Positions 18,224 to 40,841 of a stretch of 64,000 nt of DNA are shown piece by piece. Below the pieces are notes generated by a model. The model did no database searches. It worked only from the letters and a program-made list of their open reading frames with translations, and was not told the DNA's origin. A program made the position numbers and the translations under genes. Within the stretch, counting starts at the first letter, position 1. Every line of letters begins with the position of its first letter. The stretch lies in assembly GCA_963717945.1 (NCBI GenBank), contig CAVQXT010000003.1, positions 1,342,622-1,406,621 of the forward strand. Direction: 5' to 3'. Source of the DNA: an uncultured Acidobacteriota bacterium (GTDB lineage: Bacteria; Acidobacteriota; Vicinamibacteria; Vicinamibacterales; Fen-181).

Positions 18224-18713
18224 ATGCCGCCTCGCCGCCGCCGGGCAGGCCGACGACCTGCCGCACCAGGTCGATCGACACGATCGCGCCCGGCTCTCGC
18301 TGCACCCGGTCGAGGAGATCGGTGTAGGCCGCCTCGGGCAGCACGACCGGCAGCAGGCCGTTCTTGAGCGCGTTCTGCCGGAAGATGTCGGCGAAAGACC
18401 CGGCGACGACGGCGCGGAACCCGAAATCGACGAGCGCCCACGGCGCGTGCTCGCGCGAGCTGCCGCAGCCGAAGTTCCACCCGGCGACTATCACTGCGGC
18501 GCCTGCGGCCTCCGGCCGGTTCAGGATGAAGTCCTGATGGAGCGACCTGTCCGGGCCCTGGCGCCAGTCGGCAAACAGATTCGCGCCGAGGCCGGAGCGC
18601 GTCGTCGTCTTGAGGAACCGCGCCGGGATGATCTGATCGGTGTCGACGTTGTCGCGGGCGAGGGCCACGGCGGGGCCCGAGAACCGCGTGACGGGTTCGC
18701 GCGCCGCGCTCAC
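18102..18713 (-). CDS. leuD: 3-isopropylmalate dehydratase small subunit
   Basis: The sequence reads [15 protein letters not shown]...[18 protein letters not shown]. The GTG start overlaps the leuC stop (GTGA) and follows AGGAGG. Confidence 0.9.
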
Positions 18714-20107
18714 GAGAGCCTCCTCGGGTCGCTGACCACTCCGGTCACGGCGGCCGCGGCGGCCGTGGCCGGGCTCGCGAGCATCGTGCGCCCGCCCTGA
18801 CCCTGGCGCCCCTCGAAGTTCCGGTTGCTCGTCGAGACCGCGCACTGTCCCGGCTGCAGCTGGTCGCCGTTCATCGCGATGCACATCGAGCAGCCGAACT
18901 CGCGCCACTCGGCGCCGGCGGAATGGAAGATCCGATCGAGGCCCTCGGCCTCCGCCTCGCGCTTCACGACCGCGGAGCCCGGGACCACCAGCGCCCTCAC
19001 GCCCGGCGCCACCCGGCGTCCCCGGAAAATGGCAGCGGCTTCGCGCAGGTCGGACACACGCCCGTTCGTGCAGCTGCCGATGAAGACGACGTCCACCGGG
19101 TGGCCGAGCAGCGGCTTGCCCGGTTCGATCTGCATGTAGTCGAGCGCCCGGGCGAGCGCTTGCCGCCCGGCGGGAGTGCCGGCCGACGCGGGTCCCGGCA
19201 CCTCGGCGTCGATGCGGATCGCCATGCCCGGGTTGGTCCCGAAGGTGATCATCGGCGCGATGTCGCCGCATTCGATCGCCACTTCCCGATCGAATCGCGC
19301 GCCGTCTTCGGTTCTGAGCGACCTCCATTGGCGGACGGCCGCGTCCCAGTGCCGGCCGGCGGGCGCGGCCGGCCGGCCCGCCAGGTAGTCGAACGTCGTC
19401 TCGTCTGGCGCGACCAGGCCGGCCCGGGCGCCGGCCTCGATCGACATGTTGCACAGCGTCATCCGCCGCTCCATCGAGAGCGCGCGGACGGCGGCGCCGG
19501 CGTACTCGATTACGTGGCCGGTGCCCCCGCCCACGCCGATCCTGGCGATGATCTCGAGCGCCAGGTCCTTGGCCGTGACGCTGTCGGGCAGGCGACCTTC
19601 GACGGTGATGCGCAGCGTCCTGGGCCGATGCTGCAGCAGGCACTGGCTCGCGAGCACCATCTCCACCTCGCTCGTCCCGATCCCGAAAGCCAGCGCCCCG
19701 AAGGCCCCGTGCGTGGCGGTGTGACTGTCGCCGCACACAATCGTCATGCCGGGCTGCGTCAGGCCCCGCTCGGGGCCGATGACGTGGACGATCCCCTGGT
19801 CGGGTTGCCCGCGCCCTGAGCACGGGACCCCGAACTCCCGGCAGTTGGTCTCGAGCTGCTCGATCTGGCGGGCCGCGATCCGGTCGGTGATCGGCACGCT
19901 CGCCGGGGTCGTCGGCACGCTGTGATCGACGGTCGCGAAGGTGAGGTCGGGCCGGCGCACGCGGATGCCGCGGGCGCGCAGACCGTGGAACGCTTGCGGT
20001 GAGGTCACCTCGTGGACGAGGTGGAGGTCGATGTAGAGAAGCGACGGCGCGCCCGGCGCGCTCGCAACCACGTGCGCATCCCAGATCTTGTCGATGATCG
20101 TACGCAT
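18710..20107 (-). CDS. leuC: 3-isopropylmalate dehydratase large subunit
   Basis: The sequence from ATG 20107 reads [14 protein letters not shown]...[17 protein letters not shown]. Aconitase-family motifs are present (CGDSHT, GSCTNGR, MCIAMN). Confidence 0.92.
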
Positions 20108-20114
20108 GTGAACC

Positions 20115-21212
20115 TCACCCCTCGGCGATCGCGTCTCGCACCGCGCGGCCGACCTCGGCCGTGGACGCCGGGCCGCCGACCGGCCTGAGATCGGCGGTTC
20201 GCGGACCCAGGGCCACGGCCCGGTCAATTGCCGCCTCGACGATCCGCGCCTCCTTGTGCAGCCCGAAGGTGTACGCGAGCATCGCCGCGACCGATCCGAT
20301 GGCGCCGAGCGGATTGGCCACGCCGCGCCCCGCGATATCGGGGGCCGACCCGTGGACCGGCTCGTACAACCCCGGCCGGACGCCGCTCGGTCTGCGCTCG
20401 CCGATGGACGCCGACGCCAGCATGCCGATCGACCCGCTCAGCACGGCCGCCTCGTCGCTCAGGATGTCGCCGAACAGGTTCTCGGTCAGGACGACGTCGA
20501 ACCGCCGCGGGTCGAGCACGAGCTGCATGGCACAGTTGTCGACATACAGGTGATCGAGCGTGACGTCGGGGTACCCGGCCGCAACCTCGACCACGACGCG
20601 GCGCCACAGCTGCGAGTTCTCGAGCACGTTCGCCTTGTCGACGCTCGTGACGCGGGCGCGTCGCGTCCTGGCCAGGTCGAACGCCACTCGGGCGACGCGC
20701 TCGATCTCCGGCCGCGTGTAGGTCAGCGTGTTGACCGCGCGCTCGTCGGCGCCGCTGCCCGCGACGCCGCGCGGCTCGCCGTAGTACAGCCCGGACGTGA
20801 GTTCGCGGACGATCACCAGGTCCGTCCCCTCGACGATGGCGTTCTTGAGCGGAGAGGCGTCGAGCAAGGCCGGCCAGGCGCGCGAGGGGCGGAGGTTGGC
20901 GAACGTGCCGAGCGCCTGGCGAAGCGCCAGCAGTCCACGCTCGGGCCGTCGCCCGGGCGGCAGGTGGTCGAATCCGGGCGCCCCGACCGCGCCCAGCAGC
21001 ACGGCGTCGGCCTCGAGCGCGCGGCGCAGCGTGTCGTCGGGCAGCGGCGACCCGGTCGCCTCGATGGCGGCGCCGCCGATGAGCCCGTGGACCTCGCGCA
21101 CCGAGTGGCCGAACGCGTCCGCCACACGCCGGAGCACCGCGACGGCCTCGGCCGTCACTTCCGGCCCGATGCCGTCGCCGGGGAGGATCAGAATGTTCAG
21201 ATCCATAGACAC
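20115..21212 (-). CDS. leuB: 3-isopropylmalate dehydrogenase
   Basis: The sequences [25 protein letters not shown] and GSAPDIAG are present. Confidence 0.92.
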
Positions 21213-21273
21213 ACAGACACCTTGCGATCTGGCGATCTTGCGATCGAGCGACCTGATGGCAGGCTGCCGGCTG

Positions 21274-21374
21274 CAGGCGTCGGGCTTCGGGCCTTATCAC
21301 GGGCGTCCCGGCAAGACAGACGCGCGTGACGCGGCCTGAAGTCCGAAGCCCGTAGCCCGAAGCCGAAGTCCGGC
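21274..21374. repeat. Intergenic repeat family D (inverted GGGCTTCGGGCC / GGCCTGAAG arms with heptamer-like extension) between leuA and leuB
   Basis: gcaggcgtcgggcttcgggcc ... gcgtgacgcggcctgaagtccgaagcccgtagcccgaagccgaagtccgg shares caggcgtcgggcttcgggcc and cgcgtgac..ggcctgaag with 27723-27789. Confidence 0.7.
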
Positions 21375-21382
21375 GGCGGAGA

Positions 21383-22543
<1,161 letters not shown>

Positions 22544-22573
22544 CGGATCGCCTCCTGGAGTGTGGGGGCGACT

Positions 22574-22592
22574 ATGCCTTGCGCTTAGGCAT
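22574..22592. promoter_or_regulatory. Candidate LysR operator: inverted repeat ATGCCT-N7-AGGCAT in the leuA/LysR divergent region
   Basis: It has perfect 6-bp arms and sits in a low-GC patch between the divergent leuA and LysR starts. Confidence 0.4.
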
Positions 22593-22608
22593 TTCGCAAA
22601 TTTATAAT
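22579..22608 (+). promoter_or_regulatory. Candidate sigma70-type promoter for the LysR gene (TTGCGC-N18-TATAAT)
   Basis: A perfect TATAAT lies at 22603-22608 with a TTG-containing hexamer 18 nt upstream, about 90 nt before ATG 22699. Confidence 0.3.
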
Positions 22609-22698
22609 GCATGGCACGACGATTAGTATGAGTAATGTCATAAGCGGCGCTGATGCCCGCCGCGGACGGCCGCGCGGACGCATCGACGGGGGTGGCGC

Positions 22699-23574
22699 AT
22701 GGAGTGGTACCTGCTGCAGGTGTTTCGGGCCGTCGCGACCGAGCGGAGCTTCTCGCGGGCGGCGGAGAAGCTCTTCCGCACGCAGCCGGCCGTGTCGCTG
22801 TCGGTGCAGCGGCTCGAGGCGGAGGTCGGCGAGCGGCTGATCGACCGCGCCGGCAAGGAGCTGCTGCTCACCGACGCCGGGCGCCTCGTCGTCGACTACG
22901 CCCGCCGGTTCGAGAACCTGAAGGGGGAGATGGACAACGCCCTGGCGGAGCTGCGCGACAACTCGGCCGGCCGGCTGGCGGTGGGCGCCAACGAGTCGAC
23001 CTCGCTCTACCTCCTGCCGCACATCGCGGCGTACCGGCGGCTCTACCCGCGGGTGGGTGTGCAGGTCCGGCGATGCCTGTCGAGCAGGATCCCGTCGCAG
23101 CTCGTGGAGGGCGACCTCGAGCTGGGCGTCATCTCCTACGACCCCCAGGACCCCCGTGTGGCCTCGACGGTGATCTACACCGATCACCTGGCGTTCGTCG
23201 TCTCGCCGCGCCACCGCTTCGCGTCGCGCAAGACGGTGTCGATCCGCGACCTGGGGCTGGAGACCTTCATCGCCCACAACGTCGTGTCGCCGTACCGGAA
23301 CCTCGTGCTGCGCGCCTTCGAGAAATACCGCGTGCCGCTCCACATGGACGTGGAGATGCCGACGGTCGAGACGATCCGCGCGATGGTGCAGGCCAACGAG
23401 GGGGTGGCCTTCCTGCCGCGCATGTGCGTCGAGCAGGACATCGCGCGGCGGACGCTCAGGGAAGTCACCGTGAAGGAACTGAAGCTGGCGCGGCAGATCC
23501 GGCTGGTCTACCCGGCGCGGCGCGGGCTGAGCCACGCCGCGCGGGCCTTCCTCGATCTCGTCAGGCGCGCGTGA
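22699..23574 (+). CDS. LysR-family transcriptional regulator
   Basis: The N-terminal wHTH reads [46 protein letters not shown], followed by a C-terminal substrate-binding fold. The gene is divergent from leuA. Confidence 0.9.
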
Positions 23575-30577: not shown

Positions 30578-30671
30578 AAATTCGGATCGGGACGAATTTC
30601 AGAATCTGCCAACATCACCTGGCAGATCGTACCACTCGTGGCAGATATTGAAATTCGTCCCGATCCAATTG
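30578..30671. mobile_element. Low-GC palindromic MITE-like element, copy 1
   Basis: The 28-bp arms are GGATCGGGACGAATTTCAGAATCTGCCA (30584-30611) and TGGCAGATATTGAAATTCGTCCCGATCC (30639-30666), with 26/28 complementary. An extra internal TGGCAG lies at 30620. The core is shared with 38501-38573. Confidence 0.6.
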
Positions 30672-30805
30672 TTCCCTGAAATCGAGCATAGCAGCCGGGC
30701 TGGCGCCGGCAAAGCTCAGCCTGGGCCGGCGAGGCACGGGTTCGGCCGGAGTAAGATCAATAGCTGGGGTTCGCCCAATTGGTGGACGACGGTCAGGGGG
30801 CTCGC

Positions 30806-31771
30806 ATGTCGATTATGAGAAGCGTGCTGCTCGCCGGGGCGGAGAGTGTCTGGTTGCGCGACCGGGCGATGCGCACGCCCTTCGTGCGCCGCTCGGTTTC
30901 GCGGTTCATGCCCGGCGAATCCCTGGACGACGCGCTCGGCGCGTGCCGCCGGCAGCAGGCCGAGCGCCACATCGGGACGCTGCTCACGCGACTGGGGGAG
31001 AATCTCTCCAGCCTGGCCGAGGCCGAAGCCGTGACCGCTCACTATTGCGACGTGATCGATCGCGTGGCGACGAGCGGCCTGGACGCGCACGCGTCGGTCA
31101 AGCTCACCCAGCTCGGGCTCGACCTCGGCGCCGACGCCTGCGAGCAGAACCTCCGCGAGCTTGTCACCCGCGCCGAGGCCCGTTCTCGCATGGTGTGGAT
31201 CGACATGGAGAGCAGCAAGTACGTCGATCCGACGATCGACCTGTTCCGCCGCGTGCGCGCGCGGTCTGCGGCGGTTGGATTGTGCCTGCAGGCGTATCTG
31301 CGCCGCACGCCCGCGGACCTCGAGGCGCTGCTGCCGCTCTCGCCGGCCATCCGCCTCGTGAAAGGCGCGTACCGCGAGGAGACGACCGTGGCCTTCCCGC
31401 GCAAGGCGGACGTGGACGAGCAGTTCTTCCGCCTCGCCTCGCGGCTGCTCGATCCGGGCCTTCCGGCGGGCACGTTTCTCGGCATCGGCACCCACGACGC
31501 GCGTCTGGTCAGCCGGTTGCGGGCGGTCATCGCCGCGCGGGGCGTCACGCCGACGGCGTACGAGTTCGCGATGCTCTACGGCATTCAGCGGCCGCTGCAG
31601 GCGCGCCTGGCGGAGGAGGGGGCCCCGCTGCGGGTGCTGGTCAGCTACGGCGAGTACTGGTTCCCGTGGTACATGCGCCGGCTCGCCGAGCGCCCGGCCA
31701 ACGTGCTGTTTGTCGCGAAGAGCCTCCTCGAGCGGCGAGAGGCGATCGCAAGATCACCTGACAATTCCTAG
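30806..31771 (+). CDS. Proline dehydrogenase (monofunctional PutA-like)
   Basis: The sequences SVKLTQLGL, IDMESSKY, LQAYL.R, RLVKGAY and YG..WFPWYMRRLAERPAN are present. Confidence 0.82.
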   Translation: MSIMRSVLLAGAESVWLRDRAMRTPFVRRSVSRFMPGESLDDALGACRRQQAERHIGTLLTRLGENLSSLAEAEAVTAHYCDVIDRVATSGLDAHASVKLTQLGLDLGADACEQNLRELVTRAEARSRMVWIDMESSKYVDPTIDLFRRVRARSAAVGLCLQAYLRRTPADLEALLPLSPAIRLVKGAYREETTVAFPRKADVDEQFFRLASRLLDPGLPAGTFLGIGTHDARLVSRLRAVIAARGVTPTAYEFAMLYGIQRPLQARLAEEGAPLRVLVSYGEYWFPWYMRRLAERPANVLFVAKSLLERREAIARSPDNS

Positions 31772-34700
31772 CGCTCGTGCGGCCACGACGATCCCGCCGG
31801 CGATCGGCGCGGCGACGGCCCCGCCGTCCTCCCCGTGCTCGACGAGCACGGCGAACGCCACGCGGGCAGGGGTGGCGGTCGTCGGGCGGCCGGCCGTCGG
31901 CGGCGCAGGCTCGTACGGCGCGAAGCCGACGAACCACGCGTGGGCCGCCGCATCCTGGACCTCGGCCGCTCCCGCGATCCCCGCGATTGCCGGCGCGACG
32001 TCCTTGACGCGCCGGCCGGTTCCCTCGACCGCCGCCCGGCGCATCGTGGCCGACAGCCACCGGGTCTCCTCGGGCGTCAAGACGGCGCGTGGCGCGGCGG
32101 TCCGACGATTGTTCTCGTCGAGGACCCATCGTCCCTGCGGCATGGCGCCGCCGGCCGCCAGCGCGGCGGCGACGCGCGCCATCTTGAACGGCGTGGCCAG
32201 CACCTGGCCCTGGCCGTACGCCTCGAACGGCAGCGTGGCGCGGACGGTCTCGTCCGACTCGGGCTGGCTCAAGGAGATCTCGAACAGCGCGGACGTCTCC
32301 TCGAGCGCGGGCGCGCCGAGGCGGAGTCCGAGTTGCGCGAAATAGGCGTTGCACCCCGCGATCAAGCCGCGCTCCATGTCGAGGCGGCCGTGGGGCGCGT
32401 GGTCCGAGGGGATGTCGCGGACGGGCTCCGGCCAGCCGGGCAGCCACTTGCCGGCGCCGCGGTCGGGCAACCGCTCGCAGGTGAACGCCTGCCTCCGAAG
32501 CGCCGGCTCGTTCCTCAAGACGGCCGCCGCGGTCACCAGGTCGAAACTCGACCCCGGCGGGTACAGCCCGTAGCGCACGCGGTCGAGGAGGCCGACGTCC
32601 GTGTCGTCCACCGTCGTGTCGCCGCCGGGCCGCGCGGCCGGTTGCGGAAGGACGACCGGCCACGGGTAACTCACCGACGCCAGCAGGTCGCCCTCGGGCG
32701 ACAGCACGACGGCCGCTCCCTCGCGCTGACCGGCCCGCTCCACGCCGGCCTTCAACAAGGCGGCCACCCGCTGCTGGAGCCGGATGTCGAGCGCCAGCCG
32801 CACGTCGCGCGGCCGATCGAGGATCCGCCTCACCGCCGGGTCGTTCGGATCGCCCCGGTGGCGCAGGAGCGGCACCAGCTCGCCCAGGTCGCGACGGATG
32901 ACCTTCGAGGTCACGCCGGTCTCCGGGTCGGTGATCTCGACGACGCGTGGATGGTCGTCGTAGCCGCGCAGGCGGGCGTCGAGATCGCGCTCGACAAACG
33001 ACGTGTTCGCGGCCGCCCAGTTGACCTGGCTGCGCCAGTCGCCCAGCAGGTGAAAGGTGAGGCCGCCGAACGGGTAGCACCGCGCGCCGCTCTGCGGGCA
33101 GGCGCCGGCGGGCGACACGCCCAGCTCGGCGAGCTCCCCGGCGTGCGCCTGCAGATCGGCCGGCCGGCTCGTCGCCAGCGGGATCCCGCGACGGTCGGTG
33201 ACCGTGCCGCGCACGATTTGCTGCGCCACGGCGAGCAGCCTCGGGTTGTACTCGAAGCGCCGCACGCCGTCGGCCTGCATCGCCAGCGCCGTGGCGGCGA
33301 CAAAGTGGTCGGCCCCGGCCGTCTGCACCCAGACGATCCGGCCGGCGACGATGACCAGGCCGGCGGTCAGCGCGACGCGCAGCCAGCCCGTCTGACGGGC
33401 GAACTCGACGCGCGTCGCTCCCGAGCCGGCCGGGCGGCCGATGGCCAGCAACACGCCGAAGGCGAAAAAGTTGGCGAGCATCGACGACCGGCCGTAGCTC
33501 AGGAACGGCGTCGTCACGCCGGTGAGCGGCATCAGGTCGAGCAGGCCGGCCGCGATGAGCAGCAACTGCGCGAAGATGCCGATCGTCAGCCCGAGCGCGA
33601 GGAAGAACGTCGCGTCGCCCGGCGTGCGGCGCGCGATCCGGAAGGCGCGGTAGGCCAGAGCGACGTAGAGGGCGAAGACGGTGAGCAGGCCGATGAGCCC
33701 GGTCTCCTCACCGAGAGCCGACAGGATGAGGTCGGTGTGCCCGGCCGGGATCAGGCGCGGGTCCCCCAGGCCGATGCCCGTCCCCCGGACGGCGCCGGTG
33801 CCGAGCGCCCAGAGCGCGTTCGCAATCTGGTCGCCGCCGCGCACGGCGTTGTCCCACGGCGACCACCACATCTGCACCCGCTGCGCCACCGTGTGCGGGT
33901 AGCCGGCCAGGTAGCCGCCCGCGAACCCGAACACCAGGAGGAGCAGGCCCAGCGCCGCCGCCCTCGCCCGGCCCCGGGCCACGATGTAGAGCCCGAGGAA
34001 CACGCCGCCCAGAACCAGCGCCGGCCCCAGGTCCTTCTGCAGGAAGAAGAACAGGAGCACCAGGCCCATGCCGACGGCGACGGGCAGCAGCACGAGACGG
34101 TCCCGGTCCCGGAGGGCCCTCCAGCGGTGTGCGAAGTGCCCGGCGAGGAAGATCATGACGAGCACGCGGATGGCTTCGACCGGCTGCGCGCCCATCAGGT
34201 TCACCTTGGCGTCGCTCGTCCCCGGCCCGCTGCCGAACGCGATGAGCAGCAGCGACAGGCCGACGGCGCCGGCCAGCGCCAGGTAACCCAGCCGTCGGCC
34301 GAGCCAGCGCTCGAAGTCGAAGGAGGCCGCGGCGGCGAGCACGAGACACCCGGCCGCGACGCCCTGCGCGAAGCGCACGAACAGCATCGGGTCCCGCACG
34401 GGGTCCCTGAGGCTCACCATCATCACGAACCCGATGCCGCACAGGGCGTGGACGATCGGCAGCAGCTGCGTGTCGCCGGTCGAGCGGCGCAGGCGCAGCC
34501 AGGCGTGCGCCAGGTAGAAGGGGAGCAGCAAGAGGAGCGAGGACCAGAGCAGGCTCTGGCGGAACTCGGACGGCGTGCGGACGACGACCGCGCGTCGCAG
34601 CGCCGCCAGCTGCGCCGCGGTCAGCAGCGGAATCGGGATGTCGGTCCGGTCCGGGCTCGCGGCCAGCTGATCGCGCCGCTCGGCGAACCGTTCCCTGAAC

Positions 34701-35062
34701 GACGGCAGGTGGCGCCTGGCCGGCAGATCGCGCTCGGTGACCGTGATCGTGCCGAGCGACCCGACGCCGGACGGCGTGCGGGGCCGCGCCCCCGGCCGGT
34801 CGGGCGCGGCGATCCAGGCGGCGACCCGGTCGGCCACGAACCGGCGCTCGTCCGGGTCGGCGACGATCGGCACGAGCAGGGGCAGCAGCGGCCCCGCCCG
34901 ATCGAGCCGGCTGACGTTGACCGCCCGGCCCGACGAGAGCGCCAGGTCCGTCTCGCGCAGTGCTTCCACGCGCGCGTTCCAGATGAGCCAGAGGCCGGAG
35001 AGCGTGACGAGCGACGCGGCGACGAGCCCGGTGAGCTCGGCACGGCGCGTGCGTTCCGTCAT
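31754..35062 (-). CDS. Fusion protein: N-terminal TM/linker, SEDS (RodA/FtsW) glycosyltransferase, and a class-B PBP with degenerate transpeptidase motifs
   Basis: The SEDS motifs IPAGHTDLILSALGEETGLIG and PLTGVTTPFLSYGRSS are intact. The PBP pedestal reads RGTVTDRRGIPLA. The transpeptidase fold context is kept, but SxxK reads SSFD, SxN reads GCN and KTGT reads IAGA. Confidence 0.85.
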   Translation of the reverse strand: MTERTRRAELTGLVAASLVTLSGLWLIWNARVEALRETDLALSSGRAVNVSRLDRAGPLLPLLVPIVADPDERRFVADRVAAWIAAPDRPGARPRTPSGVGSLGTITVTERDLPARRHLPSFRERFAERRDQLAASPDRTDIPIPLLTAAQLAALRRAVVVRTPSEFRQSLLWSSLLLLLPFYLAHAWLRLRRSTGDTQLLPIVHALCGIGFVMMVSLRDPVRDPMLFVRFAQGVAAGCLVLAAAASFDFERWLGRRLGYLALAGAVGLSLLLIAFGSGPGTSDAKVNLMGAQPVEAIRVLVMIFLAGHFAHRWRALRDRDRLVLLPVAVGMGLVLLFFFLQKDLGPALVLGGVFLGLYIVARGRARAAALGLLLLVFGFAGGYLAGYPHTVAQRVQMWWSPWDNAVRGGDQIANALWALGTGAVRGTGIGLGDPRLIPAGHTDLILSALGEETGLIGLLTVFALYVALAYRAFRIARRTPGDATFFLALGLTIGIFAQLLLIAAGLLDLMPLTGVTTPFLSYGRSSMLANFFAFGVLLAIGRPAGSGATRVEFARQTGWLRVALTAGLVIVAGRIVWVQTAGADHFVAATALAMQADGVRRFEYNPRLLAVAQQIVRGTVTDRRGIPLATSRPADLQAHAGELAELGVSPAGACPQSGARCYPFGGLTFHLLGDWRSQVNWAAANTSFVERDLDARLRGYDDHPRVVEITDPETGVTSKVIRRDLGELVPLLRHRGDPNDPAVRRILDRPRDVRLALDIRLQQRVAALLKAGVERAGQREGAAVVLSPEGDLLASVSYPWPVVLPQPAARPGGDTTVDDTDVGLLDRVRYGLYPPGSSFDLVTAAAVLRNEPALRRQAFTCERLPDRGAGKWLPGWPEPVRDIPSDHAPHGRLDMERGLIAGCNAYFAQLGLRLGAPALEETSALFEISLSQPESDETVRATLPFEAYGQGQVLATPFKMARVAAALAAGGAMPQGRWVLDENNRRTAAPRAVLTPEETRWLSATMRRAAVEGTGRRVKDVAPAIAGIAGAAEVQDAAAHAWFVGFAPYEPAPPTAGRPTTATPARVAFAVLVEHGEDGGAVAAPIAGGIVVAARALGIVR

Positions 35063-35089: not shown

Positions 35090-35815
35090 CTAGACGCCGG
35101 CCACGCGGATCGCGAGCCAGCTCCCGAGCGCGAAGATGACCATCCACCTGAACAGACCGGCGAGCGTCAGCCGCATCATCGCGTCGGCGAACTCCCGGAC
35201 GAAGGCGAGCGGCAGCATCACGAACGCGGCGACATGCCCGCCCCGCAGCCACGCCGGCGCGGCGCGCCACTCGCAGTCGCCTGCGAGCATGGCGACGGCG
35301 CCGGTGCGGCTCATCACCGCCAGCGCCAGCGACCAGGCCGCGTAGACACCGAGCGCGCCCACCACAACGCGGAGCCACCAGGTGCGGGCGCCCCCGGGGC
35401 CTGAAAACCGGAGCACGGCGAGCGCGACCAGCAGCAGCAGGGTCCCGGCCAGCACGATGTCGGTCGGCTGACCGAGCATCACCGGCCCGTGCGCAATGTC
35501 GCTCCGCGAACCGGTCGCCGCGACCAGGAGGCCGAGCAGGAGGATGTAGGGCGCCGCGGGATCGGTCAGCCAGCCGCGCCCGCCGATCCGCCCGCCCCGC
35601 GACAGCACCCACAGCGTCAGGACGGCGAACCCCGCGACGGCGGCGACGACGATCGTTCGCATGGGCGAGCCGACCCGCCAGGTCTCGTACGCCGCGTCGA
35701 TGAGGAGCGCGTCGCCGGCCAGGCGGACGAGGAGGACGCCCAGGCGCGCGGCGAGCCTGCCGACGCGACGGCCGGGGCGGGTCTCGATGCCGATATCGGG
35801 CTGGGCCTCGCTCAT
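35090..35815 (-). CDS. Polytopic membrane protein, unknown function, probably co-transcribed with the SEDS-PBP fusion
   Basis: The 241-aa ORF has about 6 hydrophobic segments. It ends 27 nt upstream of the fusion ATG on the same strand. Confidence 0.55.
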   Translation of the reverse strand: MSEAQPDIGIETRPGRRVGRLAARLGVLLVRLAGDALLIDAAYETWRVGSPMRTIVVAAVAGFAVLTLWVLSRGGRIGGRGWLTDPAAPYILLLGLLVAATGSRSDIAHGPVMLGQPTDIVLAGTLLLLVALAVLRFSGPGGARTWWLRVVVGALGVYAAWSLALAVMSRTGAVAMLAGDCEWRAAPAWLRGGHVAAFVMLPLAFVREFADAMMRLTLAGLFRWMVIFALGSWLAIRVAGV

Positions 35816-35873
35816 GATCGTCGTCCGATCTTACCCGGAACGGCCCCGCTCGGGCCCGAACCTTCACAGTGGC

Positions 35874-36032
35874 GGCGCGGGCTTCCTGGCCCGCGGGATG
35901 GCCGGCGAGGACGCCGGCCCCACACCGTGTCTTGGTGGCGCGGGCCTCCTGGCCCGCGGGATGGCCGGCGAGGACGCCGGCCCCACACCGTGTCTTGGTG
36001 GCGCGGGCCTCCTGGCCCGCGGGATGGCCGGC
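35874..36032. repeat. 63-bp tandem repeat x2.5 (REP family E; two GC hairpins per unit)
   Basis: Units start at 35874, 35937 and 36000. Each unit contains GCGGGCC-TCCT-GGCCCGC and GGCCGGCG-AGGA-CGCCGGCC followed by CCACAC. Confidence 0.9.
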
Positions 36033-36068: not shown

Positions 36069-38477
36069 ATGGTCGTGTTCACCCAGCCGCTGGTGCCCGA
36101 GTCGATCGTCCATCCGGCCGAAGGACCCAGCCCGCGGTTGCTCGCCGGCGTGGCGCGCAACCTGGCGGCGGTGCCGGAGCTGTTCGCCGACCGGGCGCTC
36201 GCGGCGACCCTGGGCGCCCGCGAGACCGAGGGGCAGCCGCTCGCCATCCGCCGCGCGAGGATGCTCGCCCGGATCCTCGCCGACCACCCGATCGTCATCC
36301 AGGACGGCGAGGTGATCGTCGGGACGAAAACGCGGAAGCCCCGCGGCTCACCGGTCTATCCCGAGATCAACTGCGCCTGGGTGGAGCGCGACCTCGATCG
36401 GCTGGCCACCCGGTCGAACACGCCGTTCACCGTCGCCGAGAAGACCCGGCGCGCGCTCGGCGAGGAGGTCTTCCCGTACTGGCGCGGGCGCCAGGTGGCG
36501 GACCGGATCTTCGAGCAGGTTCCGCCGGCGATGTGGCGCGCCGACGACCGCGGCGTCCTCTACCACTACTTCCGCTCCCGCACGATCGGCCACATCAACG
36601 CCGGCTACGCGAAGGTGCTCGCGCTGGGCTTCGACGGGATTGCGGACGCCGCGCGGCAGGGGCTCGAGGCCCGGCAGGGTGATGGGCCCGAGGCCGCCTC
36701 CAGCCGCGAGATGCTGGCGTCGGTCATCCTCGCCTGCGAGGCCGCGGTGGCGTTTGCCCGGCGCCACGCCGCCGCCCTGCGCGAGCTGGCCGGGGCCGAG
36801 CCCGACGCCGCCCGCCGCGCCGAGCTCGCCCGCATGGCCGACGTGTGCGAGCGCGTGCCGGCCGCGCCGGCCCGCGGCTTCCACGAAGCGCTGCAGTCGA
36901 TGTGGTTCACGCACCTCGTGCTGAACCTCGAGACCGACGGGCACGCGTTCGGCCCCGGCCGCTTCGACCAGTATCTCTACCCGCACTATCGCCGCTCGAT
37001 CGAGACCGGCGAGCTGAACGAAGCGCAGGCGCAGGAACTGCTCGACCTGATGTGGGTCAAGTTCGACGAGATCACGCTGGCCAAGGACTCCGGCGAGGCC
37101 GGGACCAGCAGCTCGTACCCGGAGTTCCAGAACCTGAACATCGGGGGGCTGACGCGCGACGGCCGCGACGCGACCAACGAGCTGTCCTACATGTGCCTCG
37201 CCGCGCTCGAGCGCACGAGGCTGCCGCAGCCAGGGTTGTCGGCCCAGATCAGCTCCCGGACCTCGTCGCGTTTCCTGCTGCGCTGCTGCGAGCTGCTGCG
37301 GCTCGGTCTTGGCATGCCGGCCATGTTCAACGCCGACACCCTCGTGCTCGGGATGGTGAACCGGGGCAAGACGCTCGAGGACGCGCGCGCCAGCAGCCTC
37401 AACGGCTGCGTTGCCTGCTTCTGCGACGGCAAGGACCGGATGGCGTCGAGCGGCTACTTCAACCTGGCCAAGTGCCTCGAGCTGGCGCTCGGCGACGGCC
37501 GCGACCGCCTCACGGGGGAACGGCTGGGGCCGGCCACCGGCGACCCGCGCGCGTTCGCCACGTTCGACGACGTGCTGCAGGCGTTCCGGGCGCAGGTGGC
37601 GCACTTCGTCGACGAGAAGATCCGCTACGACGGCATCGTCCGGCAGGTGTACGCGGCCTATTGCCCGGTGCCGTTCACCTCGGCGGTGATCGACGACTGC
37701 GTCGAGAAGGGGCTCGACTGGCACGCGGGCGGCGCGCGCTACAACATCTCCACGATCTCGGGCGTCGCCGTCGGCACGGTGGCCGACGCGCTGTCGGCGA
37801 TACGGACGCACGTCTTCGAGCGGCGGACGGTCACGATGGCGCAGTTGGTGGACGCGCTGGACCGCGACTGGGAGGGGCACGAGGTGCTGCGCGAGCTGCT
37901 CGTGAACAAGACGCCCCACTACGGGAACGACGATGACGGGCCCGACGCCCTGGCGGCGCTGACCGAGGGGATCTTCTGCGACCAGGTGGAGGCGCACCGC
38001 GACGTGCAGGGCGCGCGCTACTGGGTGGACCTGCTGCCGACGACGGCGCACGTGGCGCTCGGCCAGGTGACCGGGGCCACGCCGGACGGCCGCCGCGCCG
38101 GCACGCCGCTGTCCGAAGGCGTGTCCGCCGTGCAGGGGCACGACCGCCGGGGGCCGACCGCCGCGGCGGCCTCGGTCGCCAAGCTGGACCACGCCCGCAC
38201 CAACGGCACGCTGCTCAACATGCGGATCAACCCGGACTGCCTGCGCACCATCCACGACTTGCGCAAGCTGGCGGCCCTCATCCGCGGCTACTTCGACCAG
38301 GGCGGCCATCACGTCCAGTTCAACATCGTCGATCGCGCGGTGCTCGAGGACGCGATGGCGCACCCCGAGCAGCACCGCGACCTGGTGGTGCGCGTGGCCG
38401 GGTACTCGGATTACTTCGTGCTGCTCAGCCCGGACATCCAGAGGGAGATCTTGTCGCGGACCGAACATGGACTCTGA
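36069..38477 (+). CDS. Glycyl radical enzyme (PFL2/glycerol-dehydratase-like family), substrate unknown
   Basis: The C-terminal glycine loop is VRVAGYSDYFVLLSPDIQREILSRTEH, with Gly at codon 38400-38402. The N-terminal region matches the PFL2 pattern (IVIQDGEVIVG, YWRG). The thiyl loop is NGCVACFC (Cys 37407-37409). Confidence 0.85.
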   Translation: MVVFTQPLVPESIVHPAEGPSPRLLAGVARNLAAVPELFADRALAATLGARETEGQPLAIRRARMLARILADHPIVIQDGEVIVGTKTRKPRGSPVYPEINCAWVERDLDRLATRSNTPFTVAEKTRRALGEEVFPYWRGRQVADRIFEQVPPAMWRADDRGVLYHYFRSRTIGHINAGYAKVLALGFDGIADAARQGLEARQGDGPEAASSREMLASVILACEAAVAFARRHAAALRELAGAEPDAARRAELARMADVCERVPAAPARGFHEALQSMWFTHLVLNLETDGHAFGPGRFDQYLYPHYRRSIETGELNEAQAQELLDLMWVKFDEITLAKDSGEAGTSSSYPEFQNLNIGGLTRDGRDATNELSYMCLAALERTRLPQPGLSAQISSRTSSRFLLRCCELLRLGLGMPAMFNADTLVLGMVNRGKTLEDARASSLNGCVACFCDGKDRMASSGYFNLAKCLELALGDGRDRLTGERLGPATGDPRAFATFDDVLQAFRAQVAHFVDEKIRYDGIVRQVYAAYCPVPFTSAVIDDCVEKGLDWHAGGARYNISTISGVAVGTVADALSAIRTHVFERRTVTMAQLVDALDRDWEGHEVLRELLVNKTPHYGNDDDGPDALAALTEGIFCDQVEAHRDVQGARYWVDLLPTTAHVALGQVTGATPDGRRAGTPLSEGVSAVQGHDRRGPTAAAASVAKLDHARTNGTLLNMRINPDCLRTIHDLRKLAALIRGYFDQGGHHVQFNIVDRAVLEDAMAHPEQHRDLVVRVAGYSDYFVLLSPDIQREILSRTEHGL

Positions 38478-38500: not shown

Positions 38501-38573
38501 GTAATTCGATCGGGACGAATTTCAGTTTCTGCCAACCTGGCACGGAAGTTGTAATTCGTCCCGATCCAATTAC
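38501..38573. mobile_element. Low-GC palindromic MITE-like element, copy 2
   Basis: GTAATTCGATCGGGACGAATTTCAGTTTCTGCCAACCTGGCA....AATTCGTCCCGATCCAATTAC shares the core and the CTGCCAAC..CTGGCA centre with copy 1. Its right end contains the TAA stop of the OCD-family gene. Confidence 0.6.
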
Positions 38574-39673
38574 AGAAATCGCGACCCCAGCCCGGCCGTG
38601 CTGGCGCGCCCGAACGCCAGCAGCGCGATCGCCGTGTCTTGCACCCCGACGCCGGTGAGCGCGCAGACGGTGATCTCGTCGTCGCGGTCGCGGCCCGGGA
38701 GCCGGCCCGACGTCAGGTCGCCCAGCTCGGCGACCGCGGCGCCCTCGGCCAGCACGCCCGCCGCCCGCGCGTGGTAGAACTCGCCGCGCGCGAAACACTG
38801 CGTCTTCAGGTCGCAGGCGAGGCGCGTGGCGCGGCCGAGCACCTCGCCGTCGAGCTCCTGCTTCTCGGGGGTGTCGGCGCCCATCGCGGTGATGTGCAGG
38901 CCGGCGTGCAGCCAGCCGGCCCTGACGACCGGCTCGTGCGACGGCGTGCACGTGATGACGACGTCGCTCTGGCGGACCAGCGCCTCCGGGTCGGCAGCCT
39001 CGACGCGAACGGGAGCACCGGCACCGCCCGTGCCGGGCGCCGCGCGATCTTCACCGAGCACGCCCGGCATCTCGCGCACGTAGGCCTCGACGGCCGCCGG
39101 AGACCGGTCGTACACGAGCACGCGCTCGAACGACCGGACCAGCTGCAGCGCGCGCACCTGGTAGCGGCCCTGGGCCCCGGCGCCGATCACGCCGACCGTC
39201 CGCACCTGCCGCGGCGCCAGGTGCTTCGCGGCGGCCGCTCCGGCCAGAGCCGTGCGAACGTCGGTGAGGTAGCCGTTGTCGAGGAGGATCGCCTGCGGGT
39301 ACCCCGTGCGCGCGCTGAGCACGACCATCAGGCCGCTGCCGCTCGCGAGCCCCCACGTGCCGTTGTCGAAGAACCCCGAGGCGATCTTGATGGCGAGGCT
39401 CGGCAGGCCGTGGATGTAGGCGGCCTTCACGTCCACCTCTCCGTGGCGGTCCGGCACGAACAGCCCGAGGATCGGCGGCACGTCCGCCTCGCCGCGAGCG
39501 AGTTGCGTGAACGCGTTCTCGACCGCCGCCAGGGCCTCGAGATCCAGTTCGACGACCTCCCGGAGCTCGCGTTCGGTGAGGACCAGGATCGGATCGCGGC
39601 GCGGGGCGGCGCCCTCTTCCGCTCCGGCCGACGACGAGGGCGGACCCGTGGGGCTGTGGTGCTCGGTGCGCAT
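38570..39673 (-). CDS. Ornithine cyclodeaminase / mu-crystallin family NAD(P)-dependent enzyme
   Basis: The Rossmann motif is VGVIGAGAQGRYQ, followed by DVVITCT.S..PV and ITAMGADTPEKQELD. The start is taken at ATG 39673; an alternative lies at 39727. Confidence 0.8.
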   Translation of the reverse strand: MRTEHHSPTGPPSSSAGAEEGAAPRRDPILVLTERELREVVELDLEALAAVENAFTQLARGEADVPPILGLFVPDRHGEVDVKAAYIHGLPSLAIKIASGFFDNGTWGLASGSGLMVVLSARTGYPQAILLDNGYLTDVRTALAGAAAAKHLAPRQVRTVGVIGAGAQGRYQVRALQLVRSFERVLVYDRSPAAVEAYVREMPGVLGEDRAAPGTGGAGAPVRVEAADPEALVRQSDVVITCTPSHEPVVRAGWLHAGLHITAMGADTPEKQELDGEVLGRATRLACDLKTQCFARGEFYHARAAGVLAEGAAVAELGDLTSGRLPGRDRDDEITVCALTGVGVQDTAIALLAFGRASTAGLGSRFL

Positions 39674-39725
39674 GGCGCATAGAATATACGCGCCTGGCAT
39701 ATTTCGTCCCCGGAGAAACACCGAC

Positions 39726-40841
39726 ATGAAAATCCCCGTCTTCGAGATGGAACGGATGCAGTCGACCTGGGAGAACCTCGTCGACTACGACATGAGCGAG
39801 AGCGGCGTCCGCCCGATCTCCCTGCGCGGCCTCGTCGAGATGGGGTTCGACCTCGACGCGGCCCTCGACCTGCCGCTCGGCTACAGCCAGTCGAACGGCA
39901 CGCTCCCGCTCAGGGAGCGCCTCGCCGCCCTCTATCCCGGCTCGACGGTTGACCACATCGAAGTGACCAACGGCACCTCGGAGGCGAACTACCTGGTCGC
40001 CCTCTCGCTGCTCGAGCCGGGTGACGAGATGGCCATGGAGCTGCCCAACTACATGCAGCTCCGGGGAGTGCCCGAGAGCCTCCAGGCGAAGGTCCGGACG
40101 TTCACCCTCCGCCCGGACCGCCAGTGGGAGCCGGACTGGGAGGAATTCGAGCGGGCCGTCACGCCGCGCACGCGGCTGCTGTATCTCTCGAACCCGAACA
40201 ACCCGTCGGGGGCCGTGCTCTCCGACGCCGCGATGCGGCGCATCGTCGCCCGGTGCGAGGAGACGGGCACGGTCGTCCTGGCCGACGAGGTCTATCTCGG
40301 CGCCGAGGTGGAGGGGGAGCGGACGAGGAGCTTCTGGGGCCTGAGCGACCGCGTGGTCGTCACGAGCGGTCTCTCGAAGGCCTACGGCATTCCCGGCGTG
40401 CGCGTCGGGTGGATCGTCGGCCCGCCGCGCCTGGTCGAAACCTGCTGGAGCCAGCACGACTACCTGACGATCGGCCCCAACAAGCTGTCGGACCTGGTGG
40501 CCAGGGTGGCCGTCGCGCCCGACAACCGCGAGGCGCTCTACGCGCGCACCCGCGCCATCCTCCGCGAGAACCTGCCGATCGTCGAACGGTGGGCGGCAGG
40601 TTTCGGCCGCCTGCTCGAGTTCAACCGGCCGCGAGCCGGGGCCATGACGCTCGTGCGATACCGGTCCGAAGTGCCGAGCCTCGACCTGTGCGAGCGGATC
40701 CGCGTCGAGCAGAGCACGCTGGTGGTGCCCGGCCGCCACGTCGGCCTCGAAGGCTACCTTCGCATTTGGTACGGCGGCAGGCAGGAGTACATCACCGAGG
40801 GCCTCCGGCGCATCGGCGCCGTGCTCTCGACGCTGGGCTGA
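39726..40841 (+). CDS. Class I/II PLP-dependent aminotransferase
   Basis: The sequences SQSNGTLPLRERLA, LSNPNNPSG and SGLSKAYGIPGVRVGW (PLP Lys) are present. The gene is divergent from the OCD-family gene. Confidence 0.85.
   Translation: MKIPVFEMERMQSTWENLVDYDMSESGVRPISLRGLVEMGFDLDAALDLPLGYSQSNGTLPLRERLAALYPGSTVDHIEVTNGTSEANYLVALSLLEPGDEMAMELPNYMQLRGVPESLQAKVRTFTLRPDRQWEPDWEEFERAVTPRTRLLYLSNPNNPSGAVLSDAAMRRIVARCEETGTVVLADEVYLGAEVEGERTRSFWGLSDRVVVTSGLSKAYGIPGVRVGWIVGPPRLVETCWSQHDYLTIGPNKLSDLVARVAVAPDNREALYARTRAILRENLPIVERWAAGFGRLLEFNRPRAGAMTLVRYRSEVPSLDLCERIRVEQSTLVVPGRHVGLEGYLRIWYGGRQEYITEGLRRIGAVLSTLG

Follow-up and report, generated by a model that had tools for sequence, protein, structure and literature searches.

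The gene at positions 36069-38477 (forward strand) of a 64,000-nucleotide stretch of contig CAVQXT010000003.1 (assembly GCA_963717945.1; the whole stretch is hereafter called the window), from an uncultured Acidobacteriota bacterium of the Vicinamibacterales lineage Fen-181, encodes an oxygen-sensitive glycyl-radical enzyme (GRE) in which the glutamate of the Cys loop is replaced by alanine. The protein belongs to a large, conserved and experimentally tractable group of GREs that is probably sister to hydroxyproline dehydratase (HypD) and is here termed the CXA clade, after the Cys-X-Ala found where studied relatives have Cys-X-Glu (CXE). Comparison with its relatives makes it probable that this is a functional enzyme acting on a proline-like carboxylate with no base in the Cys loop, and that its activase would be encoded elsewhere in the genome.

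Identity and integrity of the window GRE

The open reading frame is free of stop codons over 802 residues, in a window of about 70% G+C, and its product matches the PFL-like (PF02901, 1.9e-200) and Gly_radical (PF01228, 9.9e-34) domains of Pfam. The features common to the GRE superfamily are present, i.e. a barrel with a glycine-radical domain carrying RVxG[FYW], and an aligned catalytic cysteine. The Cys loop N445-G-C447-V-A449-C-F-C452-D453-G-K-D456 (37401-37436, reading NGCVACFCDGKD) was placed by HMMER alignments and by its conservation in 120 homologues. It contains the thiyl-radical site Cys447 (codon 37407-37409, in the frame 36069+3(n-1)), which aligns with Cys433 of glycerol dehydratase (GD), Cys434 of HypD and Cys438 of propanediol dehydratase (PD). 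The glycine radical loop V-R-V-A-G778-Y-S-D-Y-F (38388-38417; Gly778 codon 38400-38402), recognized by alignment with known glycine loops, is of the "GYSD" form of the HypD lineage. A sequence-only reading of this DNA had named both sites and their codons, and the Pfam domains together with alignments to structures 1R8W (GD), 6VXC (HypD) and 5I2A (PD) show them to be genuine and the codon positions to be correct; neither a catalytic Cys or Glu elsewhere in the alignment nor a mutated glycine loop was seen.

The same reading noted a PFL2-type N-terminus, and the window GRE passes TIGR01774 (PFL2-3, the PFL2/glycerol-dehydratase subfamily) with 685.9 against a cut-off of 678.2. No equivalog cut-off is reached. 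HypD is the best equivalog (NF043068, 741.7 bits against 1100), and scores are lower for IAD (416 bits, cut-off 1100), HPAD (330, cut-off 1150) and the PFL equivalog TIGR01255 (161, cut-off 994). In the alignments to known structures, similarity to BSS amounts to 281 bits.

The gene is intact, and it is neither a pseudogene nor a one-off. Pairwise ratios of nonsynonymous to synonymous substitution (dN/dS) are 0.17, 0.22, 0.21 and 0.29 relative to the homologues at loci L002, L001, L004 and L006, respectively, which indicates purifying selection. An exact-protein look-up matched no record. The overall fold predicted by AlphaFold2, from an input alignment of clade sequences only (n=27), matches those of GD, HypD and PD with template-modelling (TM) scores of about 0.8 (0.83 for HypD). 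This model has a predicted local-distance difference test (pLDDT) value of 71.6 overall; in the barrel strands and in both the Cys and the glycine loops it falls below 50.

Replacement of the Cys-loop glutamate

In HMMER alignments C447-V448-A449 falls on the C-V-E of 1R8W, 6VXC and 5I2A, so that Ala449 occupies the position of the CXE glutamate. The residue before Cys447 is Gly446, and the adjacent Cys-Cys pair of PFL is absent; both points agree with the sequence-only reading. The window GRE thus lacks the CXE motif of the GRE 1,2-eliminases and isomerases (GD, PD, HypD, CutC, IslA, HpsG, HplG, YbiW and PflD). It differs also from the arylacetate decarboxylases HPAD and IAD (CXE) and PhdB (CXQ with Trp at +13), with low scores for HPAD and IAD and with Ala449 and Ser460 in the clade.

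A June 2026 review of characterised GRE classes finds CXE retained in every eliminase and isomerase, and notes that whole GRE clades still lack validation. No characterised GRE clade shares Ala at the Glu position, and no account of a CXA-type GRE was found in a literature search. Many uncharacterised GRE representatives also lack Glu at the CXE position, so that Ala at this position is unusual among studied enzymes and not unique in sequence space.

Extent and placement of the CXA clade

Conservation was assessed in the best 120 of 1686 database homologues, which are 67-92% identical to the window GRE. All but one of these have GCVA (119, against 1 with GCVS), followed by a variable residue and then [FYN]-[CA]-D-G-x-D, and all 120 have [VI]RVAGY in the glycine loop. 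The two further cysteines of the Cys loop to which the sequence-only reading drew attention are present, and neither is a special feature of the protein: the position of Cys450 is variable in the clade (A/G/C/V/T), and Cys452, almost invariant in the clade, has the same Cys in Clostridioides difficile HypD. Source names of clade members include Vicinamibacteria/Acidobacteriota, Desulfobacterales and Aminicenantes. A scan with a clade-specific DNA motif detected 48 further loci in JGI metagenomes, and k-mers of the window GRE are present in soil, peat, sediment and wastewater metagenomes. A scan of GTDB genomes was dominated by true HypD genes, since the peptide patterns are shared, and returned 4 clade members.

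No tight clustering with a characterised GCVA clade was seen. The nearest representative outside the clade, in a library of 1.84 billion proteins, is 47% identical, is of CXE type and reads NGCVEVNAQGCD. The next GTDB relatives are 41-47% identical and have the loop SGCVE[TVA]GAFGKE (also ..FGKE), except for two sequences of L059 and L075 with Cys-X-Thr (CXT). With the HypD equivalog the tested GTDB relatives in this identity range score 1166-1327, the clade 742-828 and a sister sequence 788, against the cut-off of 1100. The tested GTDB relatives are therefore HypD by the NCBI criterion; for true HypD-type relatives the scores extend over 1166-1427.

The sister group (P0241, P0248 and L011:1052-3370) consists of Desulfobacterales sequences, 45-47% identical, with the loop NGCVEVNAQGCD. 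In this uncharacterised group the Cys-loop Glu and the carboxylate triad are kept and Tyr stands at the position of HypD Asp278, with a score (788 bits) below the HypD cut-off. The CXT type is represented by L059:4867-7092, L075:2839-5067 and P0285 from Aminicenantes and Thorarchaeota, HypD-type GREs reading GPSGCVTISAFGKE, with Thr for the CXE Glu. Asp278, Lys326 and the triad are retained in these, and L059 passes the HypD cut-off (1248 against 1100). The CXT sequences represent a second, independent loss of Glu within the HypD lineage.

Active-site residues retained and replaced relative to HypD and GD/PD

Residue roles were taken from the structure and mutagenesis of HypD (PMC7077986) and mapped with HMMER and MAFFT, which agree at the key positions. 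The carboxylate triad of HypD (Ser334, Tyr450 and Thr645) is complete in the window GRE as Ser347, Tyr463 and Thr658, together with the proline-stacking Phe340 as Phe353, and these four residues are invariant in the clade. The same is true of Arg171 (HypD Arg156) and of His175 (HypD His160, GD His164), the latter also found in many other GREs. Residue 352, at the position of HypD Asp339, is Glu in the window GRE and alternates between Glu and Asp only in the clade. His175 apart, these features are mostly missing in GD, PD and other representatives, where Phe or Tyr replaces Ser347, and only in the HypD lineage does the glycine loop take its GYSD form.

Other residues of HypD are replaced: Asp278 by the clade-invariant His292 (codon 36942-36944), which aligns with GD His281, Glu436 by Ala449, Lys326 by Asp340, Trp277 by Gly291, and Phe440 by Asp. 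Within the essential acid/base set of HypD (Asp278, Glu436, His160 and Asp339), only His160 is kept as such, with Glu352 for Asp339. The HypD variants D278N and E436Q are inactive (PMC7077986). The Gly-His pair including His292, and Asp340, are the states of GD and PD, so that the clade looks ancestral rather than derived at these positions. New clade-invariant residues, Asp453, Arg457 and Ser460, lie on the strand leaving the Cys loop. Taken together, the clade appears to share the hold of HypD on an amino-acid-like carboxylate, and not its handling of the 4-OH and NH groups.

Among known systems HypD is the closest, being the best-scoring named family and the most similar in the Cys-loop region, and sharing the RVAGYSD loop, the triad, the Phe340, His160 and Arg156 equivalents, an acidic residue at Asp339 and the predicted fold. 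It differs in overall identity (37-47%, with clade scores far below the equivalog cut-off), in the position of the activase gene, directly upstream in HypD loci and downstream or absent in the CXA clade, and in having a neighbouring 1-pyrroline-5-carboxylate (P5C) reductase gene, which is absent from CXA clade loci. GD and PD (PDB 1R8W, 5I2A and 9RCO) are the top PDB matches in sequence and fold and have the Gly-His pair, Asp340 and the His175 equivalent; unlike the clade, they have CXE, Phe at the Ser347 position, a GYSA loop and no carboxylate triad. PhdB, PFL and BSS resemble the clade in having no Cys-loop Glu (CXQ in PhdB; Ser in PflB and BssA), but all three are without the HypD triad, PFL needs the CC pair and BSS needs small subunits. 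No conserved family of small open reading frames, such as would correspond to the beta/gamma subunits of X-succinate synthases, was found beside the GRE in any clade locus. A relationship to PhdB, the phenylacetate decarboxylase of the acidobacterium "Tolsyn", was suggested by the shared acidobacterial origin and lost Glu. It was rejected on motif and identity: the PhdB-like P0330 is 37% identical and has the equivalents of Gln484 and Trp495, as opposed to Ala449 and Ser460 of the clade. The Q484E variant of PhdB is inactive.

Activase and locus organisation

The window GRE was described in the sequence-only reading as an orphan with no activase nearby, and in the 64 kb of the window this is correct: phmmer searches of six-frame open reading frames of at least 80 residues (E<=10), with the cognate activase of a relative and a B12-radical-SAM protein as queries, found none, and five DNA matches to CxxxCxxC are out of frame or intergenic by frame arithmetic. 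Nor was an activase found within 10 kb on either side of the GRE in L001, L002, L004 and L006. For most of the family, however, the term orphan does not hold. Examination of the neighbourhood in relatives revealed a gntR-GRE-activase module in most clade members, commonly in the order gntR(FCD)-GRE-activase, with one group showing GRE-activase-gntR. The activase lies directly downstream of the GRE in L007, L010, L012, L088-L090 and many metagenome loci, and in six loci it is followed by a hotdog/4HBT (PaaI-like) thioesterase gene. The best sub-threshold matches of the GntR/FCD partner regulator are the carboxylate-responsive NanR, PdhR, GlcC and LldR.

In a neighbour-joining tree built on identity distances between clade sequences, the loci without both gntR and activase form one derived subclade, 74-92% identical to the window GRE, which includes the window, L001, L002, L004, L006, L009 and L096. 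The topology suggests that gntR(FCD)-GRE-activase is the ancestral arrangement and that both flanking genes left the locus in this Vicinamibacteria-type subclade. Activation there must then rely on an activase encoded elsewhere, as in Escherichia coli, where TdcE and GrcA have no activase of their own and TdcE, with an identical glycine loop, is served by the unlinked PflA. Glycine-loop identity appears to govern specificity in that system. The partner activase is known there, unlike in the window lineage, where none was found in the 64 kb. The RVAGYSD loop of the clade is identical to that of HypD and several Acidobacteriota carry true HypD-activase pairs, which makes cross-activation conceivable.

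A 492-aa B12-binding radical-SAM protein is encoded divergently from the adjoining GRE in L001 (L001:8215-9693, minus strand), the locus of a relative with a 7.04-Mb contig. As an alternative activase it was rejected, since it adjoins the GRE in L001 only. Outside the Vicinamibacteria-type subclade, L107 and L113 have gntR upstream and no activase in the 4-8 kb downstream, which may represent a second loss of the linked activase. Apart from the OCD/aminotransferase pair, the only gene that recurs near the GRE in the activase-less subclade is a homologue of the sigma-54-dependent activator of L001 (Sigma54_activat and HTH_8), seen in some members, upstream in L096, L115, L136, L009 and L001 and downstream in L121. 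It is immediately upstream and on the same strand in L096, and none is found within 6 kb of the window GRE. Five loci of one subclade (L090, L094, L112, L116 and L123) have a gene for prolyl-tRNA synthetase upstream of the gntR-GRE-activase module and divergent from it, an arrangement probably conserved by descent.

Substrate and alternative explanations

Clues on the substrate were obtained from L012, an Aminicenantes member 66% identical to the window GRE and with GCVS, in which the gene order is TauE-GRE-activase-Pro_racemase family. For the Pro_racemase-family protein the best matches, all below cut-offs, are to proline racemase, to 4-hydroxyproline epimerase and to trans-3-hydroxyproline dehydratase. 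The opposite strand downstream carries a gene for an S9/S33 peptidase and another whose product passes as a cis-3-hydroxy-L-proline dehydratase equivalog (515 bits against a cut-off of 500). Together with the OCD and Pro_dh genes of the window and the retained HypD pocket residues, this locus puts a proline-like imino acid first among the candidates. The substrate would most likely be such a compound, e.g. a hydroxyproline isomer other than trans-4-L. The sequence-only reading had pointed, weakly, to an amino or imino acid with a ring, and this is supported by the triad, the Phe340 equivalent, the RVAGYSD loop and the L012 locus, while the OCD/aminotransferase pair that had been invoked for it is weak evidence.

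Several observations weigh against a proline-like substrate and an unlinked activase. Hydroxyproline-type context is found in one divergent member only, L012, which has GCVS and not GCVA. Because the OCD and GRE genes converge they are not co-transcribed, and the OCD gene is kept among close relatives only. Beyond the gntR-GRE-activase core the neighbourhood of the clade is variable and mostly uninformative, and no proline-pathway gene is conserved across clade loci. The pocket was deduced from alignment only, because the AlphaFold2 model is poor in the active-site segments. As for the activase, searches with two cognate activases as queries gave many matches on contigs equal in length to those of clade GREs, down to 76% identity. 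Among their best 120 homologues, with lengths given at the level of clusters, none was on a contig equal in length to the large Vicinamibacteria contigs, including the 7.04-Mb one, which is suggestive only, as distant activases would escape such matching; within this search scope no activase could be demonstrated for any genome of the activase-less subclade.

A different carboxylate (a hydroxy, oxo or arylacetic acid), converted by base-free chemistry such as decarboxylation or C-C cleavage, is an unlikely alternative. Known GREs without the Cys-loop Glu are of the decarboxylase, formate-lyase or succinate-synthase types, and the conserved GntR/FCD partner, with its carboxylate-responsive closest matches, and the thioesterase after the activase fit another carboxylate equally well; the want of a proline-pathway gene common to the clade points the same way. 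On the other hand, similarity to the decarboxylases and PFL is much lower than to HypD, as the scores given above for IAD, HPAD and PFL show, the representative that resembles PhdB, with CXQ and a Trp at +13, is distant, the CC pair is absent, and the HypD-specific triad, Phe340 equivalent and GYSD loop are kept in the clade.

It is quite improbable that the gene product is a relic without catalytic activity, or serves another purpose, in a lineage that lost its activase and never forms the glycyl radical. Such a view would account for the missing activase in the window and in the flanks of L001, L002, L004 and L006, for the results with the large Vicinamibacteria contigs, and for the fact that no RNA-seq runs containing the window GRE were found. 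It is countered by the low dN/dS values, obtained inside the activase-less subclade itself, and by the invariance in that subclade of Cys447, of the glycine loop and of every pocket residue that was mapped. GREs with an unlinked activase do exist, TdcE with PflA being one, and the activase search was blind to distant activases and to whole genomes.

Conversion of trans-4-hydroxy-L-proline to P5C, the activity of HypD, is very improbable even with HypD as the best-scoring named family, given equivalog scores that are too low for HypD (742 against 1100) as for PFL, an activase gene downstream rather than upstream, no CC pair, and the loss in the clade of Asp278 and Glu436, whose substitution inactivates HypD.

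Proposed mechanism

In the explanation that we favour, of a functional HypD-sister GRE, an activase would install the radical on Gly778, and in the Vicinamibacteria-type subclade this activase would be an unlinked one, as PflA is for TdcE. The radical would then pass to Cys447, and the thiyl radical so formed would attack a small carboxylate substrate by abstracting one of its hydrogen atoms. In GD, CutC and IslA the substrate OH beside the radical loses its proton to the Cys-loop Glu. In HypD this Glu holds the leaving OH in position, and protons are shuttled by Asp278 (PMC7077986). The step after hydrogen abstraction in the window GRE would proceed without a Cys-loop carboxylate: His292, His175 or the clade-invariant Asp453 may handle proton transfer, or deprotonation of the substrate may not be needed. 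Protonation of the leaving group by His175 is plausible, because this equivalent of GD His164 and HypD His160 is kept while both carboxylates are lost, and the "push" could come from His292, from Asp453 or from the substrate itself, if it is needed at all.

A bolder proposal can be put forward only tentatively and is on balance unlikely: the clade may carry out a new type of GRE reaction, its substrate being a cyclic imino acid derived from proline or of another kind, with a His/Asp apparatus or no base, widespread in Acidobacteriota, Desulfobacterales and Aminicenantes of soil and sediment, and operating in Vicinamibacteria by way of an unlinked or non-cognate activase.

Genomic neighbourhood and repeat elements in the window

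The neighbouring genes named in the sequence-only reading, for proline dehydrogenase, an OCD/mu-crystallin protein and an aminotransferase, were confirmed with Pfam and NCBIfam. The OCD/mu-crystallin "cyclodeaminase" gene (38570-39727, minus strand; Pfam 4.6e-57; NF006141 409.2, cut-off 408) converges with the GRE gene, with a hairpin element between the two, and diverges from the gene for a class I/II aminotransferase-fold, pyridoxal phosphate (PLP)-dependent enzyme (39726-40841, plus strand), whose start was set by comparison with a 371-aa orthologue in L002. This OCD(-)/aminotransferase(+) pair lies beside the GRE only in the subclade of at least 77% identity, and is conserved gene order among close relatives, not an operon. 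A DDE transposase and other inserted genes lie between it and the GRE in L001. The best NCBIfam matches of the aminotransferase are the generic PRK07324, then VioD (capreomycidine synthase) and GntC (guanitoxin cyclodehydratase), all well below cut-off; the latter two depend on PLP and form cyclic amino acids.

Upstream, and divergent from the GRE, is a gene for a predicted membrane protein of 241 residues with no family match (35090-35815, minus strand), conserved in L002 and L136. It is preceded by a gene for a fusion of FtsW/RodA with a penicillin-binding transpeptidase (31754-35062, minus strand, 1102 residues; Pfam and NCBIfam) and by the proline dehydrogenase gene (30806-31771, plus strand; Pro_dh 6.3e-32; ProDh_Thermus 241.6, below cut-off), 4.3 kb upstream of the GRE. 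In L001 and L004 the FtsW-PBP fusion gene is grouped with genes for FHA proteins, a PP2C phosphatase and a Ser/Thr kinase. This cluster of cell-division genes is conserved and shows where on the chromosome the GRE of this lineage lay ancestrally. Further away, at 18713-22867 (minus strand), genes for homocitrate-synthase-like (HMGL-like and HCS_D2), aconitase-family and isocitrate/isopropylmalate dehydrogenase proteins in a row beside a LysR regulator resemble a module for chain elongation, of the alpha-aminoadipate-type lysine or the leucine type.

Repeat elements flank the GRE, in line with the sequence-only reading. The divergent intergenic region between the gene for the 241-residue protein and the GRE holds a 63-bp tandem repeat (35870-36032, 2.6 copies, 98% match), the core of which has no other copy in the window and none in the 138 loci compared. 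The GRE and OCD genes, which converge, have between them a palindromic element of 73 nt with 20-bp arms (38501-38573; -44 kcal/mol, fold z-score -5.6). It is relatively AT-rich, has a related copy at about 30620-30690, upstream of Pro_dh, and was not found in related loci. In appearance it is a small element, specific to this genome, of the miniature inverted-repeat transposable element (MITE) or repetitive extragenic palindromic (REP) type, and may act as a bidirectional terminator. No Rfam or tRNA matches were found in the window.

Significance

All GRE eliminases and isomerases characterised by structure or biochemistry make use of the Cys-loop Glu, and its mutation kills HypD and CutC. With this Glu replaced by Ala and the substrate-anchoring residues kept, the CXA clade offers a ready-made test of whether the Glu is essential, and members with an adjoining activase (L007, L089 and L012) are practical pairs for expression. 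The automatic labels "formate C-acetyltransferase" and "hydroxyproline dehydratase" are unreliable for genes of this clade. Vicinamibacteria have been described from aerobic isolates, and the activase-less state of the Vicinamibacteria-type subclade is a secondary puzzle. The clade as a whole probably carries an unassigned reaction in the anaerobic turnover of amino or imino acids in soils and sediments.

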